In this document: piece after piece, positions 22,341-64,000 of the stretch
Position numbering within the stretch: the stretch's first letter is position 1
How the letters are laid out: every line of letters begins with the position of its first letter
Assembly (NCBI GenBank): GCA_046753605.1
Contig: JBHHTZ010000001.1
Span: 1,244 to 65,243, forward strand
Reading direction: 5' to 3'
Source of the DNA: Anaerolineae bacterium
Lineage (GTDB): Bacteria > Chloroflexota > Anaerolineae > Epilineales > JAANWY01
Length of the DNA: 64,000 nucleotides
Notes under the pieces: generated by a model
Database searches by the model: none
What the model was told of the DNA's origin: nothing
Seen by the model: only the letters and a program-made list of their open reading frames with translations
Position numbers and translations under genes: made by a program

Positions 22341-23276
22341 ATGCCAGAGAACCTGCCACTGCAGAAACGGACAGGCTTCAATCGAGGCGAACAGTCCGTA
22401 AACCTGAACCGTATCCGGCACCTGGGGCAGCCTGCCATCAAAGCCGGCCCCGGCGACACCGTCATCCTGAAAAACGCCCCCGTCATCCCTGGGAGAGGGC
22501 AAAAAACCCCCAGAACACAAATAATGAACCTCACAGTCGGCGGTTACGTGTTCAACCGCACCGGGAACAACATCGACTACGATTTCATCCTAGTAGACCC
22601 CGACGGAAAAGAATTCGCCTACCACGCAGAAGACCTGGGAGTGGGTTCGTGGCCCCTGCCCAATGATGAGAACCACCCCATCCCTTCCCTGGGATACCTC
22701 GCATATTACGCCAGAAGCAATACGGGAATCCCGCTGAGTCTGTTGCTGCCCGGCTGGTCCCTCGTTCTTCGAGTCAAATCGGGGAACCCTCTCAGCGGCA
22801 GAGGCCTCATCATATGGGCCTGGGCGAACGACATGTCGAACAACCTACAAGCACTCATGGTGCCTGTGACCAAAACCGAAATCGAACTGGGACCGGACCC
22901 CGGTCGCGCCTGGCAGCTTTGCGGGAGCAACCTGCTACAAGGCCTTCCCCTCACTCCGACGTACCTCAACTTCGACAGTGTCGTCAGAACCGTCGAGCAG
23001 GGAGCAGAAATATATCGTCTCGCGGGCGAAGACATCCAGGTCAACAACTTGAGGCCCGACATCGCTGTGGACCCCCGTACAGATGCCAATACAGGAGTCG
23101 AGGCCGGTTTCTTGACCGAAATAGGCGACCAGAAAAAGCCGAATGGGTTGGTTCTGTCCTGCCCTGATAAAATAAAGGTCAAGGCAAAAGAGAACCAGAC
23201 CAGCGGCCCGCTGTACCTGCTCGTCCCCTTCGCTGAGTTCGATCTGCCGGCCGACATGCAGGTGGAGGAGGAGTAG
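22341..23276 (+). CDS. Hypothetical protein, paralog A of the MPEN(L/I)PLQ family
   Basis: 311 aa; N-terminus and GYVFNRTGNNIDYDFILVDPDGKE segment shared with 24023..24436. Confidence 0.6.
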   Translation: MPENLPLQKRTGFNRGEQSVNLNRIRHLGQPAIKAGPGDTVILKNAPVIPGRGQKTPRTQIMNLTVGGYVFNRTGNNIDYDFILVDPDGKEFAYHAEDLGVGSWPLPNDENHPIPSLGYLAYYARSNTGIPLSLLLPGWSLVLRVKSGNPLSGRGLIIWAWANDMSNNLQALMVPVTKTEIELGPDPGRAWQLCGSNLLQGLPLTPTYLNFDSVVRTVEQGAEIYRLAGEDIQVNNLRPDIAVDPRTDANTGVEAGFLTEIGDQKKPNGLVLSCPDKIKVKAKENQTSGPLYLLVPFAEFDLPADMQVEEE

Positions 23277-41620: not shown

Positions 41621-42004
41621 GGGATAAAAATGAAACCACGTTTGAAGCAACTATTCGTAGAAGCAGGCTTGCAACCGGCACAGGTGGTTCAACTCAACGC
41701 CGCCGGGACTGCTTGGGCCGGGGGTCTTCGATACATTGCCGCCGCCGCGACTTCTCCGGGGGTTAATGACGACGATACAGCAGGCTAATGTCATATTGAG
41801 CATGTTTTTTGCGAAAAACGGAGTGGTGGTTGTGTTCAGCGAGATAACCAGAAAGATAAGTGTCGCGGGAGATGTGGGAGCAGCCGCTCTCGTGTGCGCG
41901 GCGGACTGCAACCAAAACGACTATGTAGAGGTGGGGGTAGACACGGACATATCAAATCCTAACATAACTTTACAGAAGACGGTTCTCATGGTAGAGGGAG
42001 TATA

Positions 42005-42493
42005 ATGTTCAGGTCAAAACAGATAGCCCAAGACGGTGCTTCGGTCGGAGACATCTTCACCTGGGACGGGTCGAAGTGGGCTCCTGGTTCTGTTTCTGGC
42101 AGCGCAATCATCATGTTCGGCGCTCAGAACATCAGCGCGGCCATCGCTACTCGATATCTCTACCCGGGTTTTTCTAACAACCAGGCTCCTACGGCTCCTC
42201 CTGCTCCCGATACCCCCCCTTCGTACAGGGTACCTCGCGCCGGGACGATCAGGCGATTGTATCTTCGTCAGAACGACCCAAGAGGTAACGGAAACGTCAT
42301 CATCTATACCCTCATGAAGAACGGGGTGGCTACCGCTCTCATGGTGACGATAGCATCTACGGCTTACGATGCGAGCGATCTTGTTAACAGCGTAGCTGTT
42401 GCCCAGGGAGACTTACTCTCCTTGCAGTCCAACCATCTTATAGGGCTCGGTACTAGCCCCTACGACATCTACGCGACGATGGAGTACTTGTAA
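42005..42493 (+). CDS. Hypothetical virion protein
   Basis: 162-aa ORF whose stop overlaps the next start (ATGA). Confidence 0.5.
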   Translation: MFRSKQIAQDGASVGDIFTWDGSKWAPGSVSGSAIIMFGAQNISAAIATRYLYPGFSNNQAPTAPPAPDTPPSYRVPRAGTIRRLYLRQNDPRGNGNVIIYTLMKNGVATALMVTIASTAYDASDLVNSVAVAQGDLLSLQSNHLIGLGTSPYDIYATMEYL

Positions 42494-44265
42494 TGCCTAT
42501 CTATAGATATCGTGTAAAAGGAACAGACATCGAGAGGTTGAATAGTCTCCTCCCTAATCACAGCGTCAGTATGCGATCGCTCACTCCAAGGGTTCTGGTA
42601 GATCTGGAAGCGGAAGTAGCAGATAAGGAAAACATCGATGAAATCATGACCACTTGTGGATATGCTTTCGTCGAAACAGATCCCGCAAATGAAGAATCTA
42701 CCGATATCAAAACGTTCTTGGACAACACCGGAATAGTCTTAGACAGCGCCTCTGGGTTGAAAGGTCGTTTTACCGACATAGAGGCCATGAGGGCAACAAG
42801 GGAACTGACAAATTCAAGTTCCAACCCCATACACTGCAACAGTTTTACCCCATTGAAAACCGATGGGCCTCTACACATATACGTCAGAGACGATATCGGG
42901 GACGACGCCAATTCGGGAACGATAGCTGCGCCAGTGAAAACTGTCGAAGAGGCCATTTCACGGATTCCTCTGATAGTGAATCATTCGGTGTTTGTCCACT
43001 TGGGTAGTCACCCTGGCGCTGGCTGGGGCTACCCACGTTTCGAGAAAAGCAGAACACTCAACGCAAATATCTACATCATCGGAGATGGTGCAGGCGAGCC
43101 AGGCGTTGATGGGTTCACGGAGATTGTGTCTTCGACTGCAGCACTGGCGGGGTCAAATATAAATACCGTCAAAGGTGCCGGCATGACGCCCGGTGATTAC
43201 GATGGCTACACTTTGGAAATTCTCACAGGTGCAGCTGCGGGAGACAGAAGGACCATTCGAAACAACACTGTGACGGATATTGTTTCTGCTCGTGGTTTTT
43301 CTGCGGCCGTGAGTGCGGCTGATTTATACCGAATACTCAGACCGTCTATAAAAATAAACTTCCTATCCCCTGACACCAACGATGTCATGCTGGAAAATAC
43401 CGGGAGCGGTGACGATAGGATATTCTCGGTAATGTATTTCTACAACAAAACACATTCAGTGTGGCTTATCAATGTTGGCCTGGTAGACACGCTCTTTAGT
43501 TATGTAGCTATATCCATGGTTCGATCTTGCTTGACACTCATGGGGGTAGAATTCGATTGCTCCTCGCCTCACATAGAAATCGATCGTTCAACCCTGAAGA
43601 TGGGTGTAGAAGGATACTACGATCCGACTTACTCAGGTGGCGTTCCATCAGCCGTAGATGATTTTGGAGCACCCAGTCCACTGTCCTGGGCAGGGTGGGG
43701 TGCTTTTACAAGAGGATCCGCTGCTTCTTTGGCATCCTTTACGGGCGGACATATATATGGCGTATTCTGTTCAACAATGCTTGTTACGCCGGCAAATACT
43801 AAATGGTGGCTCAGTGGGGGGCACCTGGCTCTGGGTTGCGGTGTTGTAAGAGAGTCGTATCCTGATACACATATCATTTTATACGACGAACCGTTTACTT
43901 CTTCTGCAGCAGTACTCCTTGGAAACAATGCCGGATTATCAGGCATTACCGCTTGCGTTCAGATGGGTTCCGGTTTTGCAGAAGTTGCAAATTGTGCTCT
44001 GTACGGAGATGGTGATGGACTCGTGGCTCAGCAGTTCGGGACAATACACGAGTCCCTGAGTACGGGTACCGTAGGAGGTTACGGAGTCCTCACTCGATGG
44101 AATGGTCAGGTTTATTACGATCATCAACCTAAAATTGTAGGGGGGCTTGGTGATCTGTCAGTAAACAACGGACGCACCGCGCACTCTCGCACTCTTCTAA
44201 CTGATGTGCATACGGCACTTGTGGACAAAATACACGGTAAAATATTCAGGAACGACAACACATGA
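42493..44265 (+). CDS. Putative tail fibre/tailspike (beta-helix-like composition)
   Basis: 590-aa Gly/Ser/Thr/Asn-rich ORF with repetitive beta-strand-like segments; no Walker motifs. Confidence 0.5.
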   Translation: MPIYRYRVKGTDIERLNSLLPNHSVSMRSLTPRVLVDLEAEVADKENIDEIMTTCGYAFVETDPANEESTDIKTFLDNTGIVLDSASGLKGRFTDIEAMRATRELTNSSSNPIHCNSFTPLKTDGPLHIYVRDDIGDDANSGTIAAPVKTVEEAISRIPLIVNHSVFVHLGSHPGAGWGYPRFEKSRTLNANIYIIGDGAGEPGVDGFTEIVSSTAALAGSNINTVKGAGMTPGDYDGYTLEILTGAAAGDRRTIRNNTVTDIVSARGFSAAVSAADLYRILRPSIKINFLSPDTNDVMLENTGSGDDRIFSVMYFYNKTHSVWLINVGLVDTLFSYVAISMVRSCLTLMGVEFDCSSPHIEIDRSTLKMGVEGYYDPTYSGGVPSAVDDFGAPSPLSWAGWGAFTRGSAASLASFTGGHIYGVFCSTMLVTPANTKWWLSGGHLALGCGVVRESYPDTHIILYDEPFTSSAAVLLGNNAGLSGITACVQMGSGFAEVANCALYGDGDGLVAQQFGTIHESLSTGTVGGYGVLTRWNGQVYYDHQPKIVGGLGDLSVNNGRTAHSRTLLTDVHTALVDKIHGKIFRNDNT

Positions 44266-44600
44266 GACTGGCTGACAAAAAAATAGGCAATCTCACTGCG
44301 AGTGAGATTTTCTTTTTCAAACTCTTCCTAGACTCTGTTGTCTTCACCATCGATTTCTCTCAGAGTCGTTGCATCGCCCTGGTTGCAGCAACGGCCCAAA
44401 CCGTACTGATCATAAAGAAAAATGGCGTACAGGTGGGGACAATCACATTCGCTGCTGCTGGAACGGTTGGCGTATTCGGAGGCGCTCCCGCTGATGTAAC
44501 ATGCGTTGCTGGAGACTATCTCACCATCGAAGGCCCAGCGGTTCCAGATGTGACTCTTGCGGATATTGCTGCAACTCTGTTTGGGGAAAGATTTTTATAG
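44262..44600 (+). CDS. Hypothetical protein
   Basis: 112-aa ORF overlapping the previous stop. Confidence 0.4.
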   Translation: MRLADKKIGNLTASEIFFFKLFLDSVVFTIDFSQSRCIALVAATAQTVLIIKKNGVQVGTITFAAAGTVGVFGGAPADVTCVAGDYLTIEGPAVPDVTLADIAATLFGERFL

Positions 44601-44672
44601 AGGTAAATAAGCAAGCGAAATCGTAAAGTGGTGAAGCTAACAAGGGTAGCTTCGTAATCAAATGGTGATCTC

Positions 44673-44954
44673 ATGGCATTTCCCGATCTCGTTCTCAATC
44701 CCGAATCCGAGTACCATGCGGCCGTTGAAGGCGTGCCTTTGGACGGGGATAACAAGATAAAACTGCCGTTCAAAAAAAGACTCTTCGACTCCGATAAGCT
44801 CGTGATCGATGTCTACCCTCTGGGTGCTTCAGTAACGCAGGCATCGCCCGTTTCGTTGGACGACGAAACGCAGGAGCTGGTGCTCAATTTCACCCAGACA
44901 GGCAACGACCCGGTTCGGGTAGAGGCAACGGTGCGCTGGTCGGCGAGCAATTAA
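44673..44954 (+). CDS. Hypothetical protein
   Basis: 93-aa ORF. Confidence 0.35.
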   Translation: MAFPDLVLNPESEYHAAVEGVPLDGDNKIKLPFKKRLFDSDKLVIDVYPLGASVTQASPVSLDDETQELVLNFTQTGNDPVRVEATVRWSASN

Positions 44955-45001
44955 TCGGAGCGCGCCTGTACGAACGTCTCAAGCAAGGATAGACTGAGGG
45001 T

Positions 45002-45718
45002 ATGTCGACACTGCAGATCGTTTACGGCCTCGCGGGTATTGCGATGGGGTTGCGCACCGTATCGAATGGGTTGAAGAGCCGAGAGGCAGACAGGAAAGCT
45101 CGTCTGGGGCGACTACCCCCTGTTGGCTTCCAAGGACGATCTGTTCAGAAGCCATCTCGGCAGCCCCTGAGTGACGTTTTTTTCAACACGCCATCTGGTC
45201 GGATCCGGCTGCGCACCTACAACATCCGCAACCTCGACGAGCGCATTGCACACCTACGAAAGCTCGCCAAGGCCGGAAAAAAGGATCCGCAAGTTTACGA
45301 ATTTGTTCGGCGCGTGGTCAACGGCAAATGCGGCAACACGTGGTGTATACCGGAAAAAGACAACGTCGCGGAGGCCCGAGCCCTGTTCAATGCCATTCGC
45401 AAGAACGTCCGGTACACCTCCGACATCGCCGGCATCGACAGTTACCAAAAGCCCCGCCATACGCTGGCCATGCGTGGCGGGGACTGTGACGACTACAGCA
45501 CGCTGGCGTGCGCGGCCGCGGGTGCTATTGGCATCCCTTGCCGGTTCAAGGTCATAAGAACGCAGGGAGCGCCCACGTGGAACCACATCTACGCCCAGCT
45601 CGGGTTTCCACGTCGTATGCCACGAAAATGGATCTCGTTTGATGCGAGTGTCCCGATGCCTTTCGGGTGGGAGCCGCCGCCGCGCATGGTCGCAGCCTCG
45701 CGCGTGTTCCCTACTTGA
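45002..45718 (+). CDS. Transglutaminase-like cysteine protease domain protein
   Basis: RGGDCDDYSTLACAAAGAIGIPCRFKV matches the transglutaminase-like core G.C.D[FY]...L.RA.GIPAR. Confidence 0.6.
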   Translation: MSTLQIVYGLAGIAMGLRTVSNGLKSREADRKARLGRLPPVGFQGRSVQKPSRQPLSDVFFNTPSGRIRLRTYNIRNLDERIAHLRKLAKAGKKDPQVYEFVRRVVNGKCGNTWCIPEKDNVAEARALFNAIRKNVRYTSDIAGIDSYQKPRHTLAMRGGDCDDYSTLACAAAGAIGIPCRFKVIRTQGAPTWNHIYAQLGFPRRMPRKWISFDASVPMPFGWEPPPRMVAASRVFPT

Positions 45719-45851
45719 AAGTATTGACGCCGTCCAAAAGTACCGTCTAGTCTGACCTTCGACAGTGGTGTGGTCGGTTTCCGTCCGCTCCAACGAAAGA
45801 GAAGGTTGTTCTGGTCCCGTTACGTGCGTGGACCCTAACCGGAGGAGATAA

Positions 45852-46496
45852 ATGGCGTACGACGATCTCATGGGACTAGATATGTACGACGGCCTGGACG
45901 GAGTGGACGACATCTACTCGGCCAGGATGTTTCAGGATCAAATCATCGCGGCGGCTTCGTCCGGTGTGGCTATCCTGCTCGCGAGCTGGAGCCTGCCGAA
46001 GCTGACGGCCGAGGATGGCCTGTTCAAGAACCTGGAGGAGCAGAACCGGCACCGCGTCGGCGCGATCCTCGGGATCATCTTGGGCGGCGTCGCCGGTCGC
46101 ATCGCCTGGAACAGGAACCGCGACGTTGGCATGGCCATCGTGGGCGGTGTGTCGGGTCTGGGCATCGCGCAGCTGATCGACTCGTTCATCGAGAAGCAGA
46201 ACCTGATCGGTGGCGGCGACGCGAAGATGTACCCGCTCGGCTCGTTCGGCGCGCTGCCCGAGGACACCGAGCTGTCCGCGAGTGACCAGGCGCTGCTGGC
46301 GGCCTACGACCAGGACAACGCGGGTGCGTTGTCGGCACTGGAAGCGGCCAACGTGCAGGCTTCGCGCGGAGCTTTCGGGGAAACCGAGGGCACCGTGGTC
46401 CACCCCGAGCAGCTGATGGGCTTCGGGGGACTCGATGCGGCCGTGGTGGCTGCGCAGACTCTTGGCGAAGAGCCGTATCCCGGATACCTCGTCTAA
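45852..46496 (+). CDS. Membrane protein (two or three TM helices)
   Basis: 214-aa ORF with hydrophobic AASSGVAILLASW and GAILGIILGGVAG...MAIVGGVSGLGIA. Confidence 0.5.
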   Translation: MAYDDLMGLDMYDGLDGVDDIYSARMFQDQIIAAASSGVAILLASWSLPKLTAEDGLFKNLEEQNRHRVGAILGIILGGVAGRIAWNRNRDVGMAIVGGVSGLGIAQLIDSFIEKQNLIGGGDAKMYPLGSFGALPEDTELSASDQALLAAYDQDNAGALSALEAANVQASRGAFGETEGTVVHPEQLMGFGGLDAAVVAAQTLGEEPYPGYLV

Positions 46497-47944: not shown

Positions 47945-48367
47945 GTGGGATTACTCGGCGTTGACCTCAACAAGGATCCAGGCACCGGGAACCTGAATCT
48001 TAGGGCGTGCTTCGCTGCTATCGTGGGTCCGAGTCGAGTGGCCCACGGTCGGCGTTCGGTCGTGCGGGTTCAGGCTGGCCGGCCTGTTCTCATCCTGGGT
48101 AACAAGACCCAGGAAGAGACGATGTACTTCGAGGTCTGGCTACCTCAGAGTAGCATCCTGGCGCTGCCTGGCGGGGGCGCGTTCCTCGGGCTGATGTCCG
48201 GTGAGACGGGCGGGCAGACTGCGGTGCAGACGCTGTTCAACGCGACGCAGCGGTACTCGGGTGTGTTGCTTCCGAGCGAGCAGGTATTCGCCGAAGCCGT
48301 GACGGACGCCCTCGGCGGCGCTCTGGCGGCCCAGGTGCCGGTGGTGGTTTCCTCGGTGGTGTTCTGA
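47945..48367 (+). CDS. Hypothetical protein
   Basis: 140-aa ORF (non-ATG start in the track). Confidence 0.4.
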   Translation: MGLLGVDLNKDPGTGNLNLRACFAAIVGPSRVAHGRRSVVRVQAGRPVLILGNKTQEETMYFEVWLPQSSILALPGGGAFLGLMSGETGGQTAVQTLFNATQRYSGVLLPSEQVFAEAVTDALGGALAAQVPVVVSSVVF

Positions 48368-51300
48368 TGCCTTACCAGGACGCGCATCTGCTGGACTACC
48401 TGGGCGACTTCGCGATGGGCGACTTCGAGGCCACCAAGGCCTTGGTCCAGAGCGGGTTGCAGCAGTACACGGTAGCGGACCTGCAGTTGATCTTGGCCGA
48501 TCTCGGGTGGAAGACCTCCATGGTGCCTGTCTCGCCCATGGCGGACTTCGGTCTGTTCGGCCCGAAGACCGCGCGAGCCTGGGGACAGTCGGCCAGAAAG
48601 CGCAAGCTCAACCCGACGTTCCAGCGCGCGGGCCCCACCTCGGCGTATGCCCATCCTGCCACCGTGCGCGCCCTTGCCCAGGTGGCGAAGAGAGCGGTTC
48701 CGACGGCCGTGGTCGGCCCGAAGCTCGCGCCGGTCATTGCCAAGCCCGCTCCGGCTCCGAAGCCTAAGCCCGCGCCGGCACCCGCGCCAGCGCCGGCCGT
48801 GCAGCTGCACACCCGAGGGGTGACGGGGCTGCAGAACATCCTGTACGCCCTGGGTTGGACGACGAAGAAGCTGCCCAGGTCGAAGACGTACAGCCCGAAG
48901 CTCACCTGGGCCTGGGGCGTGTCGGCCAAGACCCGCAAGCTCAATCCGGTGTTGAAGCCGGCGAAGTACGAGGACTCGGCGTTGGTCGATTTCGCCACCT
49001 ATACCCAGATGGAGAAAGAGGCGGCCGCGAAGGTAGTCAAGAAGGACGCGCCGCCCGCAGAGAGGGAGAAGCCCGGCACGGTGGTCGAGTCCGTGTTGGA
49101 GCTACAGGACATCCTCTTCGGCGTCGGCTGGACTACCAAGAAGCTCGCGCGCGACGGGGACTACGGTCCACAGACCCGCAAGGCGTGGAGGATCTCTGCG
49201 AGGAAGCGAAAGCTGCCGACGACGTTCGAGCGCGTGGACGGCAAGACGGCCCGGGTCGCCCAGAAGGCCTACGACGTGCTCAAGGCTGCCGGAGCGCGCA
49301 GGGTTCCGACGCCCGCGCCCGCGCCCGAGCCCGAATCCGCCCCGACTCCGGTAGTGGGTATCAAGAAGCCCGTTGCCGACACTCAGAAGGTGCTGGCCCG
49401 GCTCGGCTGGCGGTCCAGAACGGTGCCGCACAAGGGCGCGAAGGATTTTGGCCTGTACGGCCCGAAGACGAAGAGCGCGTGGGAGTCCTCGGCTACCAAG
49501 CGTAAACTCAACCCGTTGTACCAGCGCGTGGATGGCAAGACCGTATTGGTCGACCCCAAGACCTACGTGGCGTTGTTGCAGGCGGGGCGCGAGAAGGTCG
49601 AGCCCACGACGCCGCCGGCCGACGTGGTCAAGAGTTCCGTGGCCGACGCGCAGCGTGTGATGATCGCGCTGGGCGTGCCGGAGTCGTTGGTGCCGCGACC
49701 GGGTGCTAAGGACTTCGGTCTGTACGGCCCGAAGACCCGAGGGGCGTGGCAGAAGGAAGCGGCCAAGCTTAAGCTCGACCCCAGGTTCGACCGGGTGGAC
49801 GGCAAGACGGTCAAGCTCAACAAGAAGACCTTCGACAAGCTCGAAGAGGTGGCGAAGATGCACGCGCCGCCGCTCGCGCCCACTCCTGTACCCGTGCCTG
49901 TGCCCGAGCCCGATCATGTTCCGGTGCCGGTCGGGATGGTTGCAAAGCCGGTCGCGGAGTTGCAGCATATCTTGATCAAGCTCGGCTGGATGTCTAGAAC
50001 TGTCCCGCGGCCGACGGCGAAGGATTTCGGTCTGTACGGCCCCAAGACCCGAGGGGCGTGGCAGTCCTCGGCGACCAAGCGCAAGCTTGACCCGCGCTTC
50101 GACCGCGTTGACGGTCGCACGGCCAGGGTCAACGAGCGCACCTACTTGAAGCTGTCAGCGGTAACGGGCAAGAAACCCGAGCCCACCCCGAAGCTGACGC
50201 CGGGTAAGCCGGTCGATGCGATCACGATCTTCGTCTCCGATATGCAGGACATCGTCCACGCCCTGGGCGTACCCGATACGCGGGCCACGACGGACGACAA
50301 GTTCGGGCCGAAGACGAAGCGGGCATGGGAGAAGGTGGCCACCGCTCGCAAGCTCAACCCGGGTATGACGGGCAAGCGGGGAGCCAAGCAGGTCCAGGTG
50401 GTGAGGGAGACGTATAACGTCTTGAAAGCTGCTGCGTTTCTGCCGAAGCCGCCGCCCGCGCCTGTGTCCAAGTCCAGGGTGCAGACCGAGGTCATTTCTG
50501 TCATGACCGTGCAGCGCGGCTTGAACAAGCTCGCGAAGGCCAAGCTCGACGAGGACGGCACCTGGGGCCCGAAGACCAGCAGGGCGTTGCGTTTCTGGCT
50601 CAACAAGCAGCCGGGAGGCAAGGCTGTCAACGTGGTCATCGTTGCCCGGGGCATAGGTACGGGCAAGATCCGTCTGCCGAAGACCTTCGTAGAGGTGTTG
50701 CGTTCGGCGGCCGTGGTCGCGCCGCCCCCGCCTGTTCCGCCTGCTCCGAAGGAGAAGGACGAAGAGCAGAAGGCGATAGATACTATCTTGAAGTTAGCGA
50801 CGGAGCGCGTCCCGGTGCTCACCGTACAGCGCGCGTTGATCTTCTTGCACAACTTTGACCCGAAGAAGTATCCGGCAGTCAAGCTCACCGGCACCTGGGA
50901 TCCTGCAACGCTGGAAGCGTTCATGATGGGAACCAAGGACAAGCTGCCCCCCATGCTGCAGAAGGCGTGGCGCAAGGCGTTGCCGCAGCTGCTGAGTGTA
51001 GACAATCGGACGCTCAAGTTGACGCTGGCCGATGCGAGAGTGGTACGAGACGGCGAGGCGAAATGGAAGAAGGCCCAGGAGAAGCCGAAGCCACCGCCGG
51101 TACCTGTGCCCAAGCCCAATTCCACGCCGACGCCTGTGCCGACTCCGACCCCGACTCCGACTCCGACGCCCACGCCCGCGCCCGAGCCGGAACCGGACTT
51201 GCCCGATTACGATGTGCCTGGCGACGAGCCTGACGTGTTTCCACCTGGCGGTGGTGGTGCTCCGGGGGTTCCGCCGGGCACAGCTATTCAAGCTGCGCAG

Positions 51301-51978
51301 GTGTGGGAAGGCGCTCTGCGGGCGCTCAACTCGTTGAGGATAGACGGGGCGCGCATTGCCAGCGAGATAAACAAGAGCCTGGAAGAGGGCGAGGTCTTGA
51401 CGTCCAAGGGCGAGCAGTTGCTCAACGCCTGGCTGAACGCGGCCGAGCGCCTCAAGCAGCGTGTTGCGCAGATCATCGAGGGAAGTCCCCAGGTAATGTC
51501 GGCTCTGGACGCGGCCGGCGGTGGCAGCATGTCGGGACTCATGGGCTACTTCGGAGATCTGTCCGGTACGGCGACCGAGGTGTTGTCGGTGCTCAAGACT
51601 CCGTTGGTTGAGGGCGGCCTGTCCGAGTGCGAGGGCTGTCCCCCGGTCGGTCTGGGAGCTGTTCCGGTGGCGGCGGTTGCCATGCGTCTCGGTGGCGCGG
51701 CCTGGGGCAAGCTCGTGCAGCTGCTTTCCTTGCCGGTCGTTCGCGCTGCGACCGTGACGTATATAGGTGTAAAGGGCGTGGGAGACGCACTGAACGCGGA
51801 CACGGCAGCCTACCGGGACATCACCACCAGGCTCAACGATGCCGTGGCCAAGGGAGAAATGACTGCAGAGGAGGCAAAAGGGTTGCGTCCTACTCGTCCC
51901 GCGGGCGGTGCTGCAATCGCAGTGGTAGGGGTTGTGGCCCTGGGAGGTCTGGCGTTATATTTACGGGGCAAGAAGTAG
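48367..51978 (+). CDS. Giant virion/internal protein with at least eight tandem PG_binding_1-like modules and C-terminal TM segments
   Basis: Repeated about 65-aa modules LQ.IL..LGW.....P...AKDFGLYGPKT..AW..SA.KRKL.P.F.RVDGKT separated by PAPAP/PTPVP linkers; C-terminal hydrophobic helices. Confidence 0.75.
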   Translation: MPYQDAHLLDYLGDFAMGDFEATKALVQSGLQQYTVADLQLILADLGWKTSMVPVSPMADFGLFGPKTARAWGQSARKRKLNPTFQRAGPTSAYAHPATVRALAQVAKRAVPTAVVGPKLAPVIAKPAPAPKPKPAPAPAPAPAVQLHTRGVTGLQNILYALGWTTKKLPRSKTYSPKLTWAWGVSAKTRKLNPVLKPAKYEDSALVDFATYTQMEKEAAAKVVKKDAPPAEREKPGTVVESVLELQDILFGVGWTTKKLARDGDYGPQTRKAWRISARKRKLPTTFERVDGKTARVAQKAYDVLKAAGARRVPTPAPAPEPESAPTPVVGIKKPVADTQKVLARLGWRSRTVPHKGAKDFGLYGPKTKSAWESSATKRKLNPLYQRVDGKTVLVDPKTYVALLQAGREKVEPTTPPADVVKSSVADAQRVMIALGVPESLVPRPGAKDFGLYGPKTRGAWQKEAAKLKLDPRFDRVDGKTVKLNKKTFDKLEEVAKMHAPPLAPTPVPVPVPEPDHVPVPVGMVAKPVAELQHILIKLGWMSRTVPRPTAKDFGLYGPKTRGAWQSSATKRKLDPRFDRVDGRTARVNERTYLKLSAVTGKKPEPTPKLTPGKPVDAITIFVSDMQDIVHALGVPDTRATTDDKFGPKTKRAWEKVATARKLNPGMTGKRGAKQVQVVRETYNVLKAAAFLPKPPPAPVSKSRVQTEVISVMTVQRGLNKLAKAKLDEDGTWGPKTSRALRFWLNKQPGGKAVNVVIVARGIGTGKIRLPKTFVEVLRSAAVVAPPPPVPPAPKEKDEEQKAIDTILKLATERVPVLTVQRALIFLHNFDPKKYPAVKLTGTWDPATLEAFMMGTKDKLPPMLQKAWRKALPQLLSVDNRTLKLTLADARVVRDGEAKWKKAQEKPKPPPVPVPKPNSTPTPVPTPTPTPTPTPTPAPEPEPDLPDYDVPGDEPDVFPPGGGGAPGVPPGTAIQAAQVWEGALRALNSLRIDGARIASEINKSLEEGEVLTSKGEQLLNAWLNAAERLKQRVAQIIEGSPQVMSALDAAGGGSMSGLMGYFGDLSGTATEVLSVLKTPLVEGGLSECEGCPPVGLGAVPVAAVAMRLGGAAWGKLVQLLSLPVVRAATVTYIGVKGVGDALNADTAAYRDITTRLNDAVAKGEMTAEEAKGLRPTRPAGGAAIAVVGVVALGGLALYLRGKK
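48430..50900 (+). repeat. Nucleotide-level tandem repeats encoding the peptidoglycan-binding modules
   Basis: Near-identical segments, e.g. aggacttcggtctgtacggcccgaagacccgaggggcgtggcag at 49711 and 50021. Confidence 0.7.
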
Positions 51979-53196: not shown

Positions 53197-55782
53197 ATGG
53201 ATCGTCAGCAAGCAGCGCAGTACCTGGCCACCTTCGACTTCGGTCTGGGCGGCCTTGACGACACGTTGCTGGATGCTGACGGGGAGCTACTGGGTTGCAG
53301 TGCCTGCGGTGGCCTGGGGGAATTCATCGGCTCTTCGTTGTCGTCGAGTGCTGTCAAGGACGCTCAGAAGGTAGTGGCAGCGGCTGCCACACCAGGCACG
53401 GAAACGACGAAGGTCGTAGCCGGCAAGCTCGCCCGCAAGGGCGTGGAGCTGGGCAAGATCGCCCACGACCGCGCCCAGGTGGCGTACAAGGCCACGCAGA
53501 AACGCGATCAGCTGGCCAAGAAGGTCGAGAAGCTGCAGCCCAAGGTCGACAAGTTGCTGGCGAGCGACAACCCGAAGAGCAGGGAAGCGGGTGAGGCGTT
53601 GAAGCAGGACCAGTACTCCGCGGCTCGTGCCGCGGTGCGTCTGGAAAAGGTCAACGCCATGGCTTCCGGGATGGCAGAGAATGCGGCAGCGCAAGCGGTG
53701 ATTGCGCAGCAGATAGCTGGCAGCGTCATTGCCGGCAAGCCCGCGCTCACCGGGACATTGACCAGCATGTACAACAAGCTCGGGCAGTCTTCGGCGAGTA
53801 TGCGGAAGGTGCGTAAAGAGCAGATCGTCAGGAGTGCCGATGTCCTCGACCAGGATAAGCTCCGTGCTTTGTTGGCGCGCAAGCGGGCGCTGTTGCAGAA
53901 GAGGGTGGACATCGAGGTGCTGCTCACGTGTGATCCCCGCACGCAGAACTCCGGTAATCTCCGCAAGCAGCAACAGCACCTCTCCATTCAGGTCGCTGCG
54001 ATCAATGCTGAAGTCAGCAAGCTCTGCAAACCCCCGCGGCCGCATTCCCTTGACGAGCTTGAGTGGGCCGGCGGCCTCGGTGAGGCGGTTCTTGCTGGTG
54101 TGGAAGCTGGTCTGGCAGCAAAGTTTGATCCCAAGGCTGCAGCAGCTCGTAGACGAGCGGCACAGGCAGCGAAAAATCGAGAGCCTATTCTAGACGCACG
54201 TTTCAATAACGCGCGCAACAAGGGCTGGATACGTCTTACAAACAGGTCGAGGCTTCGGAAGAGTTTCCATCCTGGGATACGGAACATGCCCTCCATCCAT
54301 GTGTCTGGCGACCTAGATCTCAAAATTGTGCAGGCCGCGCAGGGCGCGTTCAAGTACAACCCGAGGTTCCCCGGGGGCAAGCAGTTCCTTCCCGACGTTC
54401 GTCCTCTGCTGAAAGGGCAGCTAGGTGTTGTAGAGCAGAGACTGGGCAGGAAGCTGACCAGGGACGAAAGGGATGCGTTGTTGTGGCCACAGACGCACTC
54501 TCCGCAGGAAATAGCCAAAGCAATGAAGGCGGCTGAACATAAGAGAAGGAGGGACTACCGTCGGATGGTGGAAAAGAGCGGCTCGCTCTACCGTGTGCCC
54601 GTCGTTGGCGACGTGCTGAACACCACAAAGGCCGTGGCCAAGCCGATAGTCAATGTCGCCAAGGCAGCTGCAGAGACTGCGATACTGCCGGCCACCACGG
54701 CGGTCAAGCTCGTGACGAAGGGTCCTGCAGCGGCCATCAAGAACATCTCGCGCACGATGAAGCGCAGCTTCAACACCGTGCGCAAGGCTGCGGGGCAGCT
54801 CTTTGTAGGGCTTCCCTGCCAGATAGCCAATTCGACGGTGGGTAAGGCCGCGATGCAGATCGGCGCGGCTGCTGTTGGCACCGCGATAGGTGGCCCTGCC
54901 GACACCGTGGGAGGAGCAGTGGCGGCGAACCATTCGCAGGCGGTGACCAAGGCCGCGTGCGGAGGGCTCAAGGAGATAGGGCTTGATAAGGGTGACTTCA
55001 GGACCAGCAAGCTCGGGTCCGCGCTCGAGCACACGGCAATGGGTATCGGGAAGAACCTCGCCGACCCGAAGGCCCTGTTGAAGGATGCGCAGAGCATCGG
55101 CACCGCGTTTATCCCTGGCGGGGCCAGCGCCACCGGTCTGCTCAACAAGTACGGTGGCGAGCAGCTTCAGAAGCTCGGCGTGGGGCAGATCGCAAAGAAC
55201 ATCTCCATACCCGGGGGCGCAACCAAGCTGCTCAGGTCGGCAGGGGTGCCCACCAGCGCCGGAGCTATTCTCAGGAAGGCCGGCTTGCCTTCAGATACAG
55301 GTAGTCTGCTCAAGGCTGCAGGGGTGTCGCCGAATATCAAGGGTGTACTCAAGAGAGCAGGGGTGCCGACAGATCTACCGAGCATGGTCAAGGCGACCCA
55401 GATACTCCAAAAAATGAACATCCCTGCGACTCCGGGAGCCATCGCTCGGGCTATGAATGTCGAGCCCATCCCCATCCCCGGAATGCCTGGTAAGTTCCGG
55501 CTGCCCAGGGTGTTGCCCAAGCAGCTGAACATCAAGCAGATCCAGCAGAGCGCCATGCGCAGAGCGAACCTTGTGAAGCAGGCCCACATAAAGCGTATTG
55601 CAGCCATCGGACGGGCTCGTGCGCTCAGGGGGACCGTGCCGCAGCCGGTCGCGGCCCAGCGGGCGAGGGCCCGCCGGTTGCCACCCCCGCCCCCGCCCCC
55701 GCGTCCGAGAGCTTTACCTCGCGTTACCTTTGCGAGAGGATCCGTGGCCAGGCAGCTGATGCCGTATGTCGGCCGGGGATAG
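53197..55782 (+). CDS. Large alpha-helical/coiled-coil protein (tape-measure-like or internal ejection protein)
   Basis: 861 aa, Ala/Lys/Gln-rich heptad-like segments, Gly-rich hydrophobic stretch AAVGTAIGGPADTVGGAVAA, Pro-rich C-terminus. Confidence 0.55.
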   Translation: MDRQQAAQYLATFDFGLGGLDDTLLDADGELLGCSACGGLGEFIGSSLSSSAVKDAQKVVAAAATPGTETTKVVAGKLARKGVELGKIAHDRAQVAYKATQKRDQLAKKVEKLQPKVDKLLASDNPKSREAGEALKQDQYSAARAAVRLEKVNAMASGMAENAAAQAVIAQQIAGSVIAGKPALTGTLTSMYNKLGQSSASMRKVRKEQIVRSADVLDQDKLRALLARKRALLQKRVDIEVLLTCDPRTQNSGNLRKQQQHLSIQVAAINAEVSKLCKPPRPHSLDELEWAGGLGEAVLAGVEAGLAAKFDPKAAAARRRAAQAAKNREPILDARFNNARNKGWIRLTNRSRLRKSFHPGIRNMPSIHVSGDLDLKIVQAAQGAFKYNPRFPGGKQFLPDVRPLLKGQLGVVEQRLGRKLTRDERDALLWPQTHSPQEIAKAMKAAEHKRRRDYRRMVEKSGSLYRVPVVGDVLNTTKAVAKPIVNVAKAAAETAILPATTAVKLVTKGPAAAIKNISRTMKRSFNTVRKAAGQLFVGLPCQIANSTVGKAAMQIGAAAVGTAIGGPADTVGGAVAANHSQAVTKAACGGLKEIGLDKGDFRTSKLGSALEHTAMGIGKNLADPKALLKDAQSIGTAFIPGGASATGLLNKYGGEQLQKLGVGQIAKNISIPGGATKLLRSAGVPTSAGAILRKAGLPSDTGSLLKAAGVSPNIKGVLKRAGVPTDLPSMVKATQILQKMNIPATPGAIARAMNVEPIPIPGMPGKFRLPRVLPKQLNIKQIQQSAMRRANLVKQAHIKRIAAIGRARALRGTVPQPVAAQRARARRLPPPPPPPRPRALPRVTFARGSVARQLMPYVGRG

Positions 55783-55804: not shown

Positions 55805-56008
55805 ATGGAACCTGTCGTAGTACTGATGAAAGACGTCAACGCGCACCTGCGGGCCTACCGGGCGCAGCCGTTGCGGGAGTACAGCAACGAGCACCGGCAC
55901 GTGTTCTACGTGCCCTCGACGAAGGTCTATATCACCGTCCGCAGTGCAGGACGTGGAAAAGCCGAGATGGAATTTACACAGGAGTGCCCTTGCGGGTATG
56001 ATGACTGA
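55805..56008 (+). CDS. Small hypothetical protein
   Basis: 67-aa ORF. Confidence 0.35.
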   Translation: MEPVVVLMKDVNAHLRAYRAQPLREYSNEHRHVFYVPSTKVYITVRSAGRGKAEMEFTQECPCGYDD

Positions 56009-56054
56009 GTTATTGGGTGCGGATAGGCCGCGCCCCTGAACCGGAGGAAAACAG

Positions 56055-56156
56055 ATGCGAAGAAGGCCCACCAGGAAGAAGAGCTGCAAGTACGGCGTGA
56101 ACAAGCGGACGGGCCGCTGCCTAAAGCACCCGCGCCGGAAGAGCCGGCGGCGCTAG
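56055..56156 (+). CDS. 33-aa highly basic Cys-containing peptide
   Basis: Strong RBS ggaggaaaacagATG; MRRRPTRKKSCKYGVNKRTGRCLKHPRRKSRRR. Confidence 0.35.
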   Translation: MRRRPTRKKSCKYGVNKRTGRCLKHPRRKSRRR

Positions 56157-56433
56157 CTTCGTGAACGGCGGCGCTCGCGCCGTTGCGAGAAAGGATTTTT
56201 CATGTCCCTCGTGGTGACGAGTTGGACGACCACTCGGGTCGCCCCAACGAAGAGTGCTCCGTTTGCGGGACTGGCGTATCCCCTCGCGGCCGAGGGAACC
56301 CCCGGGGCCGCGCCGCCTGCGCGCAACATCGCGGGTGGCGTGGTCCTGGCGTTACTCGGGGCGGGCCTGCTCTGGTTGTTTCTGAGCCCGCCGACTGCGC
56401 GCGCTCGAGGTCGATACCGCTGGCCCTGATACC

Positions 56434-56742
56434 ATGCAGCTTGTGCCCACAGAGATACTCGCCTGGTCCGTGGTCCTCGGGGCCACGGCTGCGGGATTCG
56501 TTTCGGCCGTGCGCGGACTACCCTGGGTGCAGCGGGCCATCATGGACCGCCGCAAGCCCTGGGCGTGCGACGTCTGCATGGGCTTCTGGACGACGGGCGC
56601 GGTAACGGTCGGTCTGGCCTACGTCTTGAACGATATCTGGGCACTGCTCTGGGCAGGACCAGCGTACTCGGTCGCTTTATGGATTTTGCGCAAGCTGGGC
56701 GAGCCCCAGTTGCCGCCTTTGCCGCCTTTACGGGAGGAATAG
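56434..56742 (+). CDS. Small membrane protein with CxxC motif
   Basis: 102 aa; three hydrophobic helices; CDVCMGFW. Confidence 0.5.
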   Translation: MQLVPTEILAWSVVLGATAAGFVSAVRGLPWVQRAIMDRRKPWACDVCMGFWTTGAVTVGLAYVLNDIWALLWAGPAYSVALWILRKLGEPQLPPLPPLREE

Positions 56743-56745
56743 AAG

Positions 56746-57525
56746 ATGTCAAACGGAAATGTACCGCTGCAGTTACGAGGAGGCAGGAACTATGATGCCG
56801 CCCTGGGTATACTCAAGAGCTTCACCATCGATCAGGTGAAGATCGAAACCAACGAGATTGTCGTACTGGAGGGTACGGACGATCTCGATGTTGTACAGAT
56901 AGCAGACGCATTTCTCGGGATCGCCGAATCGGGCTACTCGCTGAGAAACAACACGGATGCCCCCATCGACGCGGCTCTGTTTCTCGAAGACAGATACGGT
57001 AGTTCGATAAAGGTAGACGAGCAGACAGCGGTTCCCAGCGGCACCGCAGCCACGCTTGAGTTTGTTAGCTTTTTCTCGTTACGTAAAGGCGACAGGCTCG
57101 TGGTGCGCGTCACCGGGAGCGTGACGGCCGGAGACGGCATATTGCTCATTCGCAGCATAGCGCAACTCTCTTCGAACTACGCGGAGCGTCTCACGTTGAA
57201 CGAGAAGATCACCCAGACGGCTTTCAGGTATCCGGGAGTTCCGGGTGTTGCTCCTGCTGCAGCGTTTTTGTCTGTTGCAAATTTCTCCGCGGAGGATGTT
57301 GGTTTCGAGGCAACGACGGTTTTCCCCGACGGTAGTCTGGACACCCAGTCGGACGCGGGAATGCTCACTGCGGAAGAGGTGACAGAGATTCCTATTTTTG
57401 CTCAAGGAGGCATCGAAACGCAGGTGCAGTTGGACTCGTTGCCGTCGAGCGGCTACCTGTATGGCGCATACGCCATGATCATCCCGACCGACCGTGTCCT
57501 GATACAACCGCCTCTGAACGGATAG
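56746..57525 (+). CDS. Hypothetical protein
   Basis: 259-aa ORF with RBS gggaggaatagaagATG. Confidence 0.55.
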   Translation: MSNGNVPLQLRGGRNYDAALGILKSFTIDQVKIETNEIVVLEGTDDLDVVQIADAFLGIAESGYSLRNNTDAPIDAALFLEDRYGSSIKVDEQTAVPSGTAATLEFVSFFSLRKGDRLVVRVTGSVTAGDGILLIRSIAQLSSNYAERLTLNEKITQTAFRYPGVPGVAPAAAFLSVANFSAEDVGFEATTVFPDGSLDTQSDAGMLTAEEVTEIPIFAQGGIETQVQLDSLPSSGYLYGAYAMIIPTDRVLIQPPLNG

Positions 57526-57528
57526 TAC

Positions 57529-57702
57529 ATGACAACAAAGAAAAAGAAGCGCAGCTGGAAAGGTTGTGGCTGCCCCAGGGGAGCCAAGCGGATCTCGACG
57601 AAAGGTCGGGGGCGGGGCTGGGCCTGCCAGCTGGAAGGGTATAAGTTGACCAAGAAGGGACGGAGAATCCGGCCCTTCGTAAAGGCAGTCTGTAAGGACT
57701 GA
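57529..57702 (+). CDS. Small basic Cys-ribbon protein
   Basis: 57 aa; KKKKRSWKGCGCPRGAKRISTKGRGRGWAC shares the TKGRGRG-C motif with the next ORF. Confidence 0.45.
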   Translation: MTTKKKKRSWKGCGCPRGAKRISTKGRGRGWACQLEGYKLTKKGRRIRPFVKAVCKD

Positions 57703-57716
57703 AGAAGGAGCGAAAC

Positions 57717-57917
57717 ATGGCGTGTAGATGTCCCGCAGGGTCGGTGCGAAAGGGCACCAAGGGCCGAGGCAGGGGGTTCGTGTGTATCAGCACGACCACC
57801 CGAACCAAGAGAAAGCGGATTAGCGGTGCGACGCTGACCTACGCCTGGCACCCGTTCGTCGCGGCCATCGGTTGCGGCCGGCGCAAGACGACCCGTCGCA
57901 AGAAGCGCCGCAGGTAG
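57717..57917 (+). CDS. Small basic Cys-ribbon protein (paralog of 57529..57702)
   Basis: RBS aaggagcgaaacATG; CRCPAGSVRKGTKGRGRGFVC...RRKTTRRKKRRR. Confidence 0.45.
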   Translation: MACRCPAGSVRKGTKGRGRGFVCISTTTRTKRKRISGATLTYAWHPFVAAIGCGRRKTTRRKKRRR

Positions 57918-57920
57918 GCC

Positions 57921-58153
57921 CGGTGCGCCGGGCTCTGGCGGTGTGTCTGTTCCTGGGCGGGTGCTCAGGGGCTCAGACCGCCCTGGACGACGCGCGTTCG
58001 CACGTGCGCCAGAGCGGTGAGGAGCTTCTGCGCCTGCACGGGATCATCACGGCCGTCTGCATCGAGCCCGAGCCCGAGTTCTGCCCCGAGCTGAAGAAGA
58101 GCTTCAACCGGGTGCGCGACGCCTACACCAGGCTGAACGAGGGCATACCCTGA
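57921..58153 (+). CDS. Putative lipoprotein
   Basis: GTG start; signal VRRALAVCLFLGGCSG carries a lipobox (LGGC). Confidence 0.4.
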
Positions 58154-63322: not shown

Positions 63323-63979
63323 CTAGTTCCACCAGAAGGCGGCGGGCCAGCCCGAGCTACTGGAACTGTGCTCTTCCTGGTATTCCTCTCCCTCGTCGAG
63401 CATGGGGTGGCGGGGAATCCAGGACCGGTTGCGCGGCCGCACGGTCACCTGCGCCTGATACTCGCTAAGAGCCGCGCCCGGGGGGCATACCCATACCCCG
63501 TCCTCGCGCCGGTAGCCCTGGCGGTAGACCGGGCGGCCTCGACGGTCGAGGGTGTACGCCGGAGACGGCGGGCAGTCCGCGTGGCGGTAGCCGAAGTCGA
63601 ATTTGACGATACGGCCGCTGATGGGCTTTCTGCAGACCAGGCAGACGGTCTTGCCCGACACCACTGCCGGCCGGCAGCGGTAGGTCACCTCGATGGGTAG
63701 AGGGCAGTCCGCGTGCCGGTAGATGTCCGAGCCGGTTCGGGTCACCAGGGAACCGGGCTCCAAGGCCTGCTTGCAGACGCGACAGAGTGAGCCCGCGGCC
63801 GCGAAGACCTGCCGGCCGCTCTTGAGCTTGAGCTTGACCGAGCAGCTGGCGTGCCGGTAGTTGTTACCGTGACGGTGTACGGCTCCACCTAGGGGAGAAT
63901 GCAGGAGTCTCCCGCAGATCGGGCAGGGTCGATCGCGCTCGACCTCGTACAGGTTGGCCGTCTCGCCGTTCGGCTGCAC
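63323..63979 (-). CDS. Cys/His-rich repeat protein (YRHADCP zinc-binding-like repeats)
   Basis: 218 aa with four repeats of C..C...YRHA(D/S)C(P/S). Confidence 0.5.
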   Translation of the reverse strand: MQPNGETANLYEVERDRPCPICGRLLHSPLGGAVHRHGNNYRHASCSVKLKLKSGRQVFAAAGSLCRVCKQALEPGSLVTRTGSDIYRHADCPLPIEVTYRCRPAVVSGKTVCLVCRKPISGRIVKFDFGYRHADCPPSPAYTLDRRGRPVYRQGYRREDGVWVCPPGAALSEYQAQVTVRPRNRSWIPRHPMLDEGEEYQEEHSSSSSGWPAAFWWN

Positions 63980-64000
63980 CAGGCGAAGGGGCGGCAGGCA

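Follow-up and report, generated by a model that had tools for sequence, protein, structure and literature searches.

Two families of very small cationic cysteine peptides in a phage-like element lineage

Three very small open reading frames of a 64,000-nucleotide stretch of DNA (the window) are, on the evidence of sequence comparison, genuine genes under purifying selection. Their products fall into two unrelated, previously undescribed families, one represented by ORF1 and the other by ORF2 and ORF3, and both are found in phage-like elements of a lineage that is known from metagenomes only. Tiny as they are, the two families rank among the best-conserved genes of that lineage. Polycationic DNA-binding or core peptides are the best-supported reading of their function, one that we hold tentatively and at somewhat less than an even chance; both the binding to DNA and the packaging are what we infer from composition, conservation and gene context.

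Three small genes under purifying selection

All three ORFs lie on the + strand, and the coordinates and translations given for them in the first-pass annotation were reproduced exactly. ORF1 (56055..56156, 33 aa, net charge +17) consists of a Cys-bracketed 14-residue loop between a K/R N-tail and a K/R C-tail. ORF2 (57529..57702, 57 aa, net +18) is a four-Cys mini-domain (C13, C15, C33, C55), and ORF3 (57717..57917, 66 aa, net +21) is its paralog with an extra K/R C-tail. The extreme basicity ascribed to all of them is real, with pI values of 11–12. Lysine and arginine account for 17 of 33, 20 of 57 and 21 of 66 residues in ORF1, ORF2 and ORF3, respectively, aspartate and glutamate for 0, 2 and 0, and the hydrophobic content is 12% in ORF1 and about 25% in the other two. 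In being small, very rich in Arg/Lys and poor in acidic residues all three are protamine-like in composition. Automatic gene callers left ORF1 and ORF2 uncalled in several public copies of the genome; such programs regularly overlook proteins as short as about 30 aa.

Good ribosome-binding sites had been claimed for each of the genes. This is true of ORF1 (GGAGGA, 56043..56048, + strand) and ORF3 (AAGGAG, 57705..57710, + strand), whereas in the window no clear Shine-Dalgarno sequence precedes ORF2, which starts 4 nt past the stop codon of the gene before it and shares that gene's frame. The ORF1 site is kept in contigs L001 and L002, and L008 has GGAGAA only. Since the upstream 259-aa gene and ORF2 share one frame in the window, L001 and L002, we considered stop-codon readthrough that would join the two proteins, and rejected it on finding that the arrangement is not kept in L008 and L021. 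A sigma-70-like site upstream of ORF1 (55973..56002) was likewise discarded, as it lies within conserved coding sequence and is no better than chance.

Conservation in relatives, which the first-pass annotation had proposed as a check, proved to be strong, and both families are widespread. All three ORFs are kept in the syntenic contigs L001, L002, L008 and L021. Pairwise dN/dS among these relatives is 0.03–0.48 at dS of 0.2–1.3 (0.12–0.48 for ORF1, 0.03–0.33 for ORF2 and 0.26–0.48 for ORF3), so that the constraint on the three ORFs equals or exceeds that on the neighbouring 259-aa gene. GC3 of the ORFs is 0.70–0.88. Syntenic conservation and low dN/dS together argue that the ORFs are more than chance. 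That they could be unexpressed open frames, arising by chance in GC-rich DNA, is favoured by the omissions of the gene callers noted above. Against it, the frames as proposed are under purifying selection, unrelated contigs carry dozens of homologs that share invariant residues, and the Shine-Dalgarno sequences are conserved. We regard this explanation as effectively refuted by the sequence comparisons and give it next to no probability.

Two families and where they occur

Members of the ORF1 family number at least 88 and are about 30 aa long. The motif C-x2-G-x7-C-L-K (CK[YF]GVNKRTGRCLK) is common to all 88 and is flanked on either side by hypervariable K/R tails. In the window this core loop is CKYGVNKRTGRCLK (56085..56126, + strand). 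Its positions C1, G4, C12, L13 and K14 are invariant in 88/88 members, K7 and T9 in at least 86 of them. The N-tails of single-module members are all mutually distinct (44/44), yet they consist of K/R to 57–67%. In L008 a second, two-module gene of the family occupies the place of a 75-aa gene that follows ORF1 in the window. The CxC...C spacing, described in the first-pass annotation for all three ORFs, holds for ORF2 and ORF3; ORF1 has two cysteines only, in a C-x10-C arrangement.

The proposed paralogy of ORF2 and ORF3 is borne out by BLASTP (38% identity, E = 2e-7), and the two have CxCPxG..R..TKGRGRG[WF][AV]C and PFV.A..C in common. Their mini-domain carries K/R extensions. Clustered at 50% identity, their family amounts to at least 32 clusters in a set of 1.8 billion representative proteins, and its motif is CxCPxG...STKGRGRG[WF]xC...PFVKAxC. 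Cysteines C15, C33 and C55 are invariant and C13 is present in 25/26 members. The segment R27-G28-R29-G30 is nearly invariant: G28 is found in every aligned member and G30 in at least 90% of them, and R27 and R29 do not vary in a closer set of eight sequences. The AlphaFold model of ORF2 (pLDDT 78) contains strands only and forms a small beta-hairpin, in which RGRG (27–30) is the loop joining the two main strands (19–23 and 31–35); this loop is predicted to be exposed. Merging ORF1 with ORF2 and ORF3 into a single family was rejected, as profile-profile comparison gave no match of any kind.

Neither the three ORFs nor the genes around them gave an informative match in Pfam, PHROGs or NCBIfam. 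Comparison with known folds gave no match. Against PDB sequences, the profiles of the two families gave a single match, weak and non-significant, in which the ORF2/3 core aligned with the zinc ribbon that binds tRNA in TiaS (E = 0.08). This match, together with the strict conservation of the cores, which suggests a specific target, might point to sequence-specific nucleic-acid-binding regulators, that is, a zinc-ribbon-like late activator (cf. P2 Ogr) or an arginine-rich RNA-binding peptide (cf. lambda N) acting on hairpins next to ORF1. Conserved stem-loops do lie on either side of ORF1, one in the gap between it and the preceding 67-aa gene (56015..56035, + strand) and another just 3' of its stop codon (56158..56189, + strand; window and L001). 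Both have weak z-scores, however, the cysteines of ORF2/3 appear to be arranged otherwise than in the classical zinc ribbon with its two CxxC knuckles, and no Pfam or NCBIfam family matches. At least three such genes per genome, located in a structural-type operon and with freely varying tails, also fit a regulator poorly, and we consider this role rather improbable. Scans of the window for tRNAs and Rfam families gave no match.

The elements escape virus detection: they have no recognisable capsid, portal or terminase, and neither family is found in IMG/VR, where no relatives turned up with either the 259-aa protein, the profile of ORF2/3 or a degenerate pattern of the ORF1 core as query. Neither the families nor the elements were found among isolated phages (INPHARED), and searches of 50,697 phage records gave nothing significant, either by megablast with 22 kb of the window or by tblastn with ORF1, ORF2 and other proteins. 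The closest phage by PolA, MW202816.1, is a myovirus with ordinary head and tail genes and lacks both families, which implies that the peptides travel with the unusual late block and not with the replication module. The two families also co-occur in L011/L012, a contig unrelated in other respects, and in L017, L022, L013 and L009 they are joined by additional basic Cys ORFs of small size. The cores CK[YF]GVNKRTGRCLK and STKGRGRG[WF]xC can be used as specific markers for the lineage in metagenomes.

The late-type block and its membrane proteins

All three ORFs are contained in a co-directional operon at ∼45.8–62.4 kb. Two of its other products are huge and basic, one of 1203 aa with peptidoglycan-binding domains (net +70) and one of 861 aa (net +76); the 259-aa protein encoded there is jelly-roll-like, and many membrane proteins of the block are tail-anchored. 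Directly 5' of ORF1, in every examined member of the lineage, lies a conserved 67-aa gene whose product ends in ECPCGYDD (55805..56008, + strand). ORF1 is followed by genes for a 75-aa protein with a C-terminal transmembrane segment (56202..56429, + strand) and a 102-aa membrane protein with the motif KPWACDVCMGFW (56434..56742, + strand), the latter found alongside ORF2/3-family genes in a locus as distant as L017. Then come the 259-aa protein, acidic and all-beta (56746..57525, + strand), directly 5' of ORF2, and, adjoining ORF3 on its 3' side, a 76-aa lipoprotein with the lipobox LGGC (57923..58153, + strand).

The first-pass annotation had located the ORFs among internal or ejected virion proteins. 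We could not confirm this, as no neighbour matches a virion family in Pfam, PHROGs, NCBIfam or PDB sequences. Homology scans of the late block found no recognisable capsid, portal, terminase or packaging ATPase, and a scan for Walker A motifs that might betray a packaging ATPase returned two helicases only. With no such gene recognised in the block, its designation as a virion module is tentative, and the jelly-roll-like neighbour is the one feature that speaks for it.

What the neighbourhood does show is a constant association with membrane proteins. At every locus examined, the genes around both families encode small membrane proteins and further basic cysteine proteins of small size. A lipoprotein gene lies 3' of the ORF2/3-family gene not only in the window but also in L021 and in L010, which is unrelated. 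In L021, the gene 5' of the ORF2/3-family gene codes for an i-spanin-like protein that has a coiled coil and an N-terminal transmembrane segment. Proteins with peptidoglycan-binding or muramidase domains belong to the same block. It is the persistent company of small membrane proteins and the lipoprotein that keeps a membrane-directed role alive: the peptides could be cationic beta-hairpins that act on the host envelope, either at lysis or during entry, in concert with the membrane proteins and the lipoprotein encoded next to them, in the manner of disruptins or of Cys-stapled hairpin antimicrobials such as thanatin. If membrane-active, they would form a new Cys-stapled class of phage lysis or entry peptides.

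Comparison with the two model systems brings out likeness and difference. The disruptin gp28 of phage phiKT is a highly cationic 56-aa protein without signal sequence, predicted to be amphipathic and alpha-helical and encoded between the endolysin and holin genes (bioRxiv 10.1101/515445). Our peptides are similarly small, cationic and devoid of a signal sequence, and disruptins are known to be hard to recognise by sequence (bioRxiv 10.1101/515445). Membership in this type was nevertheless rejected, as ORF2 is all-strand in the AlphaFold model and not an amphipathic helix, and the peptides are far less hydrophobic. A lysis-cassette position of the disruptin type was rejected too: a lipoprotein and transmembrane proteins do adjoin the ORFs, but the sole recognisable endolysin (Amidase_2 + PG_binding_1, 21360..22184) lies 35 kb away. 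Thanatin is an insect antimicrobial peptide that folds into a beta-hairpin with one disulfide (PMC7913509). ORF1 is likewise cationic with two cysteines and has a nearly identical turn, NKRTGRC versus NRRTGKC (PMC7913509), though the likeness is limited to these seven residues, N[KR]RTG[KR]C. The ORF1 loop is four residues longer (C-x10-C versus C-x6-C), it lacks the hydrophobic N-terminal PIIY strand and carries long K/R tails, and ORF1 is a cytoplasmic product with no signal peptide such as a secreted hairpin would have, so it was not assigned to thanatin-like peptides. The very low hydrophobic content of all three products also speaks against action on membranes. In addition, the source MAG is labelled Anaerolineae, a group whose envelope type is uncertain. 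On balance an envelope-directed function seems unlikely to us.

Candidate DNA-binding and core peptides

Several properties point instead to binding of DNA or another polyanion, the reading that we prefer. The composition is in favour of it, with 32–52% K+R and almost no acidic residues, as are the tails, which appear free to vary in sequence yet stay rich in K/R, and the conserved RGRG on the predicted exposed loop of ORF2/3. The setting in a co-directional late-type operon, with a jelly-roll-like protein and two huge basic proteins nearby, is also in favour of DNA binding. According to this model the peptides would be made late, alongside the morphogenesis-type operon, and bind the phage DNA through electrostatic contacts of their K/R tails with phosphates. 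The RGR loop might enter the minor groove in the style of an AT-hook or of Lsr2, and the genome would thereby be neutralised and compacted, in the particle or for it. The cysteines would staple the fold or cross-link neighbouring peptides, via zinc or, outside the cell, via disulfides. That the peptides bind DNA, that they enter the particle and what their cysteines do are all parts of what we infer here.

The same arguments from composition apply to effectors that are directed at the host and not packaged, coating the nucleoid, ribosomes or another polyanion and so causing host shut-off or blocking defence. Many small phage proteins of otherwise uncharacterised function act in host takeover. 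However, the genes belong to a late-type co-directional block and not to early or replication genes, and across unrelated genomes both families co-occur with membrane and structural-looking genes. We consider such effectors quite improbable.

Known DNA-condensing and DNA-binding proteins offer partial parallels to the core peptides that we propose. Like protamines, baculovirus P6.9 and adenovirus mu and VII, the peptides are small and extremely rich in K/R, with hardly any acidic residues and with fast-evolving basic tracts. Mammalian protamines are cross-linked via cysteines, and the same is conceivable here. What sets the peptides apart from protamines and viral core proteins is the strict conservation of their structured cores and their origin in a virus-like element of bacteria. 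In protamine-type proteins it is usually composition that is conserved, not sequence. The near-invariant cores therefore count against a simple protamine-like role and suggest a specific partner rather than generic charge neutralisation. The minor-groove motifs of AT-hooks and the prokaryotic 'RGR' motif of Lsr2 and H-NS resemble the near-invariant R-G-R-G of ORF2/3 with its basic flanks and predicted exposed loop. In contrast to the canonical AT-hook, there is no proline after RGR, and the scaffold is an unrelated four-Cys hairpin.

It should be noted that tailed phages are thought to package naked DNA, and that their DNA is packed too densely for stoichiometric condensing proteins, which counts against core peptides. 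If the peptides do condense the genome, a bacterial virus would here be following an uncommon strategy, which would hint at a non-canonical particle. Taken to its limit, this thought leads to a bolder proposal, which we rate as a long shot: that the elements are bacterial viruses without recognisable capsid, portal, terminase or packaging ATPase that condense their ∼70 kb genome with dedicated peptides and do not pump it into a procapsid. Cysteine-cross-linkable, protamine-like ORF1 and ORF2/3 peptides would act in this together with the two giant basic proteins, in a particle rich in membrane proteins. Were this true, the nucleoprotein cores of adenovirus, baculovirus and ascovirus would have their bacterial counterpart here.

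The ascovirus protein P64 is a virion core protein that condenses DNA and combines a Cys-bracketed motif with basic stretches; P64 and its iridovirus relatives contain vs2C-ad motifs (Pfam PF08793) and Arg/Ser-rich repeats (PMC6163548). The peptides resemble it in joining a short Cys-bracketed motif to polycationic stretches in a viral protein. They differ in size, since P64 is a 64 kDa protein with many repeats and the peptides have 33–66 aa, and in the basic residues, which are K/R here and lack the Ser-rich phosphorylatable repeats of P64. The PF08793 motif is C-x2-[WF]-x6-NP-x-T-[GN]-R-x-I-K-x-GGP-x-Y-x2-L-x3-C, with cysteines ∼31 residues apart (instances in the supplement of PMC6163548). 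Its cysteine spacing disagrees with that of ORF1, where the cysteines are 11 residues apart, and ORF1 was rejected as a 2-cysteine adaptor (2C_adapt). Membership in PF08793 was rejected as well, as hmmscan of 83 members of both families gave no match at E ≤ 10; the three ORFs of the window have none at E ≤ 1, and ORF2/3 shows no similarity to the motif. ORF1 does have N-x-x-T-G-R-x-[IL]-K in common with it (NKRTGRCLK versus, for example, NPRTGRTIK), and hhalign of the ORF1 family against the motif aligns 12 columns with a probability of 4.8% and P = 0.008.

A further relationship was considered for the jelly-roll-like neighbour and is not well supported. Paralogy of the 259-aa protein with the product of an ORF at 22341..23276 is only marginal, with E = 0.054 in direct comparison and 3e-6 via the L008 homolog.

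Three small genes of two families

The three ORFs lie on the + strand at 56055..56156 (ORF1, 33 aa, net charge +17), 57529..57702 (ORF2, 57 aa, net charge +18) and 57717..57917 (ORF3, 66 aa, net charge +21), as the window translation confirms, and with 0 to 2 acidic residues each they are as extremely basic as the first-pass annotation described. Its pairing of ORF2 and ORF3 as paralogs also holds (BLASTP, 38% identity, E = 2e-7), while the CxC spacing claimed for all three must be corrected: ORF1 carries two cysteines only, spaced C-x10-C, without CxC. ORF1 and ORF2/ORF3 are unrelated, as profile comparison by hhalign found no similarity between them. Good ribosome-binding sites, also claimed throughout, are present for ORF1 (GGAGGA) and ORF3 (AAGGAG), but ORF2 is without a clear Shine-Dalgarno sequence in the window.

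Conservation in relatives, proposed as a check on the ORFs, is seen in the syntenic contigs L001, L002-L007, L008 and L021, where the three are kept in the same order. dN/dS values (Nei-Gojobori, estimated at synonymous divergence 0.2-1.3) are 0.12-0.48 for ORF1, 0.03-0.33 for ORF2 and 0.26-0.48 for ORF3, and ORF2 evolves slower than the neighbouring 259-aa gene (56746..57525). GC3 of the three is 0.70-0.88, and homologs of the ORF2+ORF3 profile are present in a 5.8 billion-protein database. All three are thus real genes; that they are chance ORFs is excluded by dN/dS, by the ORF1-family matches and by the ORF2/3-family clusters. Several of the publicly deposited copies lack ORF1 and ORF2 in their automatic gene calls.

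The ORF2 ATG lies 4 nt past the TAG of the 259-aa gene, in the same frame, with TAG plus one codon between them (57523..57531); L001 is alike, and in L002 the homologs are separated by TAA plus three codons. A readthrough fusion of the two seems unlikely, since the homologs are out of frame in L008 and another gene intervenes in L021. Stem-loops with modest z-scores (-1.6 to -1.9) flank ORF1 at 56015..56035 and 56158..56189, and base pairing of the upstream one is retained despite sequence changes in L001 and L002. Directly upstream of ORF1, always so in this lineage, is a strictly conserved 67-aa protein (55805..56008) with ECPCGYDD as its C-terminus.

Conserved cores and polycationic tails

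The ORF1-family profile search returned 87 proteins, mostly of 29-35 aa, and C-x2-G-x7-C-L-K occurs in 88/88 sequences with the window member counted; C1, G4, C12, L13 and K14 of the core are invariant, K7 and T9 nearly so. Among the 44 single-module members no two N-tails are identical, yet they are 57% K/R (C-tails, 67%). The build of the peptides, a small structured core under strict conservation with polycationic tails that evolve freely, argues for mini-proteins that bind a polyanion and make one specific contact. About a third of the ORF1 family have two modules (50-57 aa, pattern MRRVKGKLCRTQKGRFTRC...CKYGRSKTTGRCLKRPRSCR); one occupies in L008 the place of the 75-aa membrane protein of the window (56202..56429), and L002 and L003 have one further downstream. 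Two cysteines alone do not provide a zinc site, and those of ORF1 could either close the loop or link one molecule to another; the four or five cysteines of the two-module variants would fit two loops coming together.

For the ORF2/3 family, 1.84 billion representative proteins searched exhaustively with HMMER gave 32 clusters, with the motif CxCPxG[AS]x[KR][IV]STKGRGRG[WF][AV]C...[KR]PFVKA[VI](G)C. Three of the cysteines (C15, C33 and C55) never vary, 25/26 aligned members share the fourth (C13), the RGRG segment is nearly invariant, and some members have two tandem modules. From the 26-sequence alignment AlphaFold predicts a small all-beta fold (pLDDT 78); strands 19-23 and 31-35 make up its main hairpin, with T-K-G-R-G-R-G in the loop. 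Zinc binding or disulfide formation are both conceivable for the four cysteines. A regulatory zinc-ribbon or an arginine-rich RNA-binding role of the peptides has weak hints in its favour and is rather improbable.

AT-hook and Lsr2/H-NS types are minor-groove readers, and the nearly invariant, predicted-exposed R-G-R-G of ORF2/3 resembles them. The closest precedent found is ascovirus P64, a major virion protein that condenses DNA and in which basic repeats accompany vs2C-ad motifs bracketed by Cys (PMC6163548). In true vs2C-ad, ∼31 residues separate the cysteines and the signature is W/F...NP.TGR.IK.GGP.Y (supplement of PMC6163548), of which ORF1 shares only N-x-x-TGR-x-[IL]-K. Membership in that family (PF08793) is ruled out by the cysteine spacing, an hhalign probability of 4.8% and the lack of a PF08793 match among members of both families. 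In function, we infer, the peptides resemble small viral polycationic nucleic-acid-binding proteins.

Distribution across other elements

Both families are undescribed and widespread in metagenomes, and they escape current annotation and virus-detection resources. They occur together in the otherwise unrelated L011/L012 (ORF2/3-type gene at ∼7.1 kb, ORF1-type at 10.0 kb), and among 185,579 species genomes scanned, ORF2/3-type genes turned up on 85-86 kb phage-like contigs from two bins, a Gemmatimonadaceae MAG and an 'Actinomycetota' MAG. On L017, one of these contigs, four small basic cysteine ORFs form an array, and the contig also encodes a homolog of the KPWACDVCMGFW membrane protein of the window and a muramidase; L022, L013 and L009 are similar in mixing small, basic Cys proteins with small membrane proteins whose ends are poly-Arg. 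Further unrelated small basic Cys ORFs adjoin the two families in other lineages, interleaved with such membrane proteins, as arrays (L017 9618..10433, L022 9654..10256, L013 10433..12109, L009 2250..2357, L015 13861..14118).

The closest INPHARED relative by PolA is MW202816.1 (26% identity across 97% of its length). Its replication module is similar, its head and tail genes are of ordinary myovirus type, and neither peptide family is present. It is therefore with the unusual late block that the peptides travel.

The late block and possible roles

The window is part of a ∼69.5-73.8 kb phage-like element with a replication module (RecD-like helicase, PolA, SNF2 helicase, PD-(D/E)XK nuclease, D5 primase), integrase, RadC and methyltransferases, and its sequence is identical to that of a contig assigned to an 'Anaerolineae bacterium' MAG; the element and its relatives are missing from both IMG/VR and INPHARED. 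ORF1-ORF3 sit in a tightly packed co-directional block (∼45.8-62.4 kb) that also encodes a transglutaminase-like protein, a 396-aa basic protein and numerous small membrane proteins with a tail anchor. ORF1-ORF3 are closely preceded by a 1203-aa protein (48367..51978; net +70, peptidoglycan-binding domains, C-terminal transmembrane anchor) and an 861-aa protein (53197..55782; net +76, Ala/Lys/Gly-rich, poly-proline C-terminus), neither of a recognisable family.

Made together with the late proteins, the peptides would bind DNA and neutralise its charge as core peptides, a plausible but tentative reading and the one we favour. Searches with Pfam, PHROGs, NCBIfam and PDB sequences pick out no gene for a capsid, portal, terminase or packaging ATPase in the element, and Walker A motifs were found in the two helicases only; packaging by condensation with such peptides instead of a terminase motor is quite doubtful. 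An envelope-directed role, disruptin-like or hairpin-antimicrobial-like, is suggested by the membrane-protein neighbours, the lipoprotein gene directly after ORF3 and a thanatin-like turn, NKRTGRC, but is unlikely, as the peptides have very little hydrophobic character, an all-beta prediction and no signal peptide, and the Amidase_2 endolysin (21360..22184) is distant. The composition would also suit a host-directed effector, a very unlikely role in view of the location.

Outside the late block, a 49-aa basic ORF (29560..29709) has a classical zinc-ribbon-like CxxC...CxxC (MNTPSTQRRRRRCRTVKRRWKCRVCGRF...CWRCGG) of a distinct type. A low-GC island at 42000..46000 (0.495-0.54 versus about 0.61 elsewhere) holds a 590-aa ORF (42493..44265) with weak matches to tail/baseplate families, that may be an exchangeable host-recognition gene. 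At 63323..64000 the - strand encodes part of a 445-aa protein with about six zinc-ribbon-like C-x2-C...YRHA-x-C repeats, complete in L018 (16578..17915) and kept in L001, L002 and L021 (436-440 aa).
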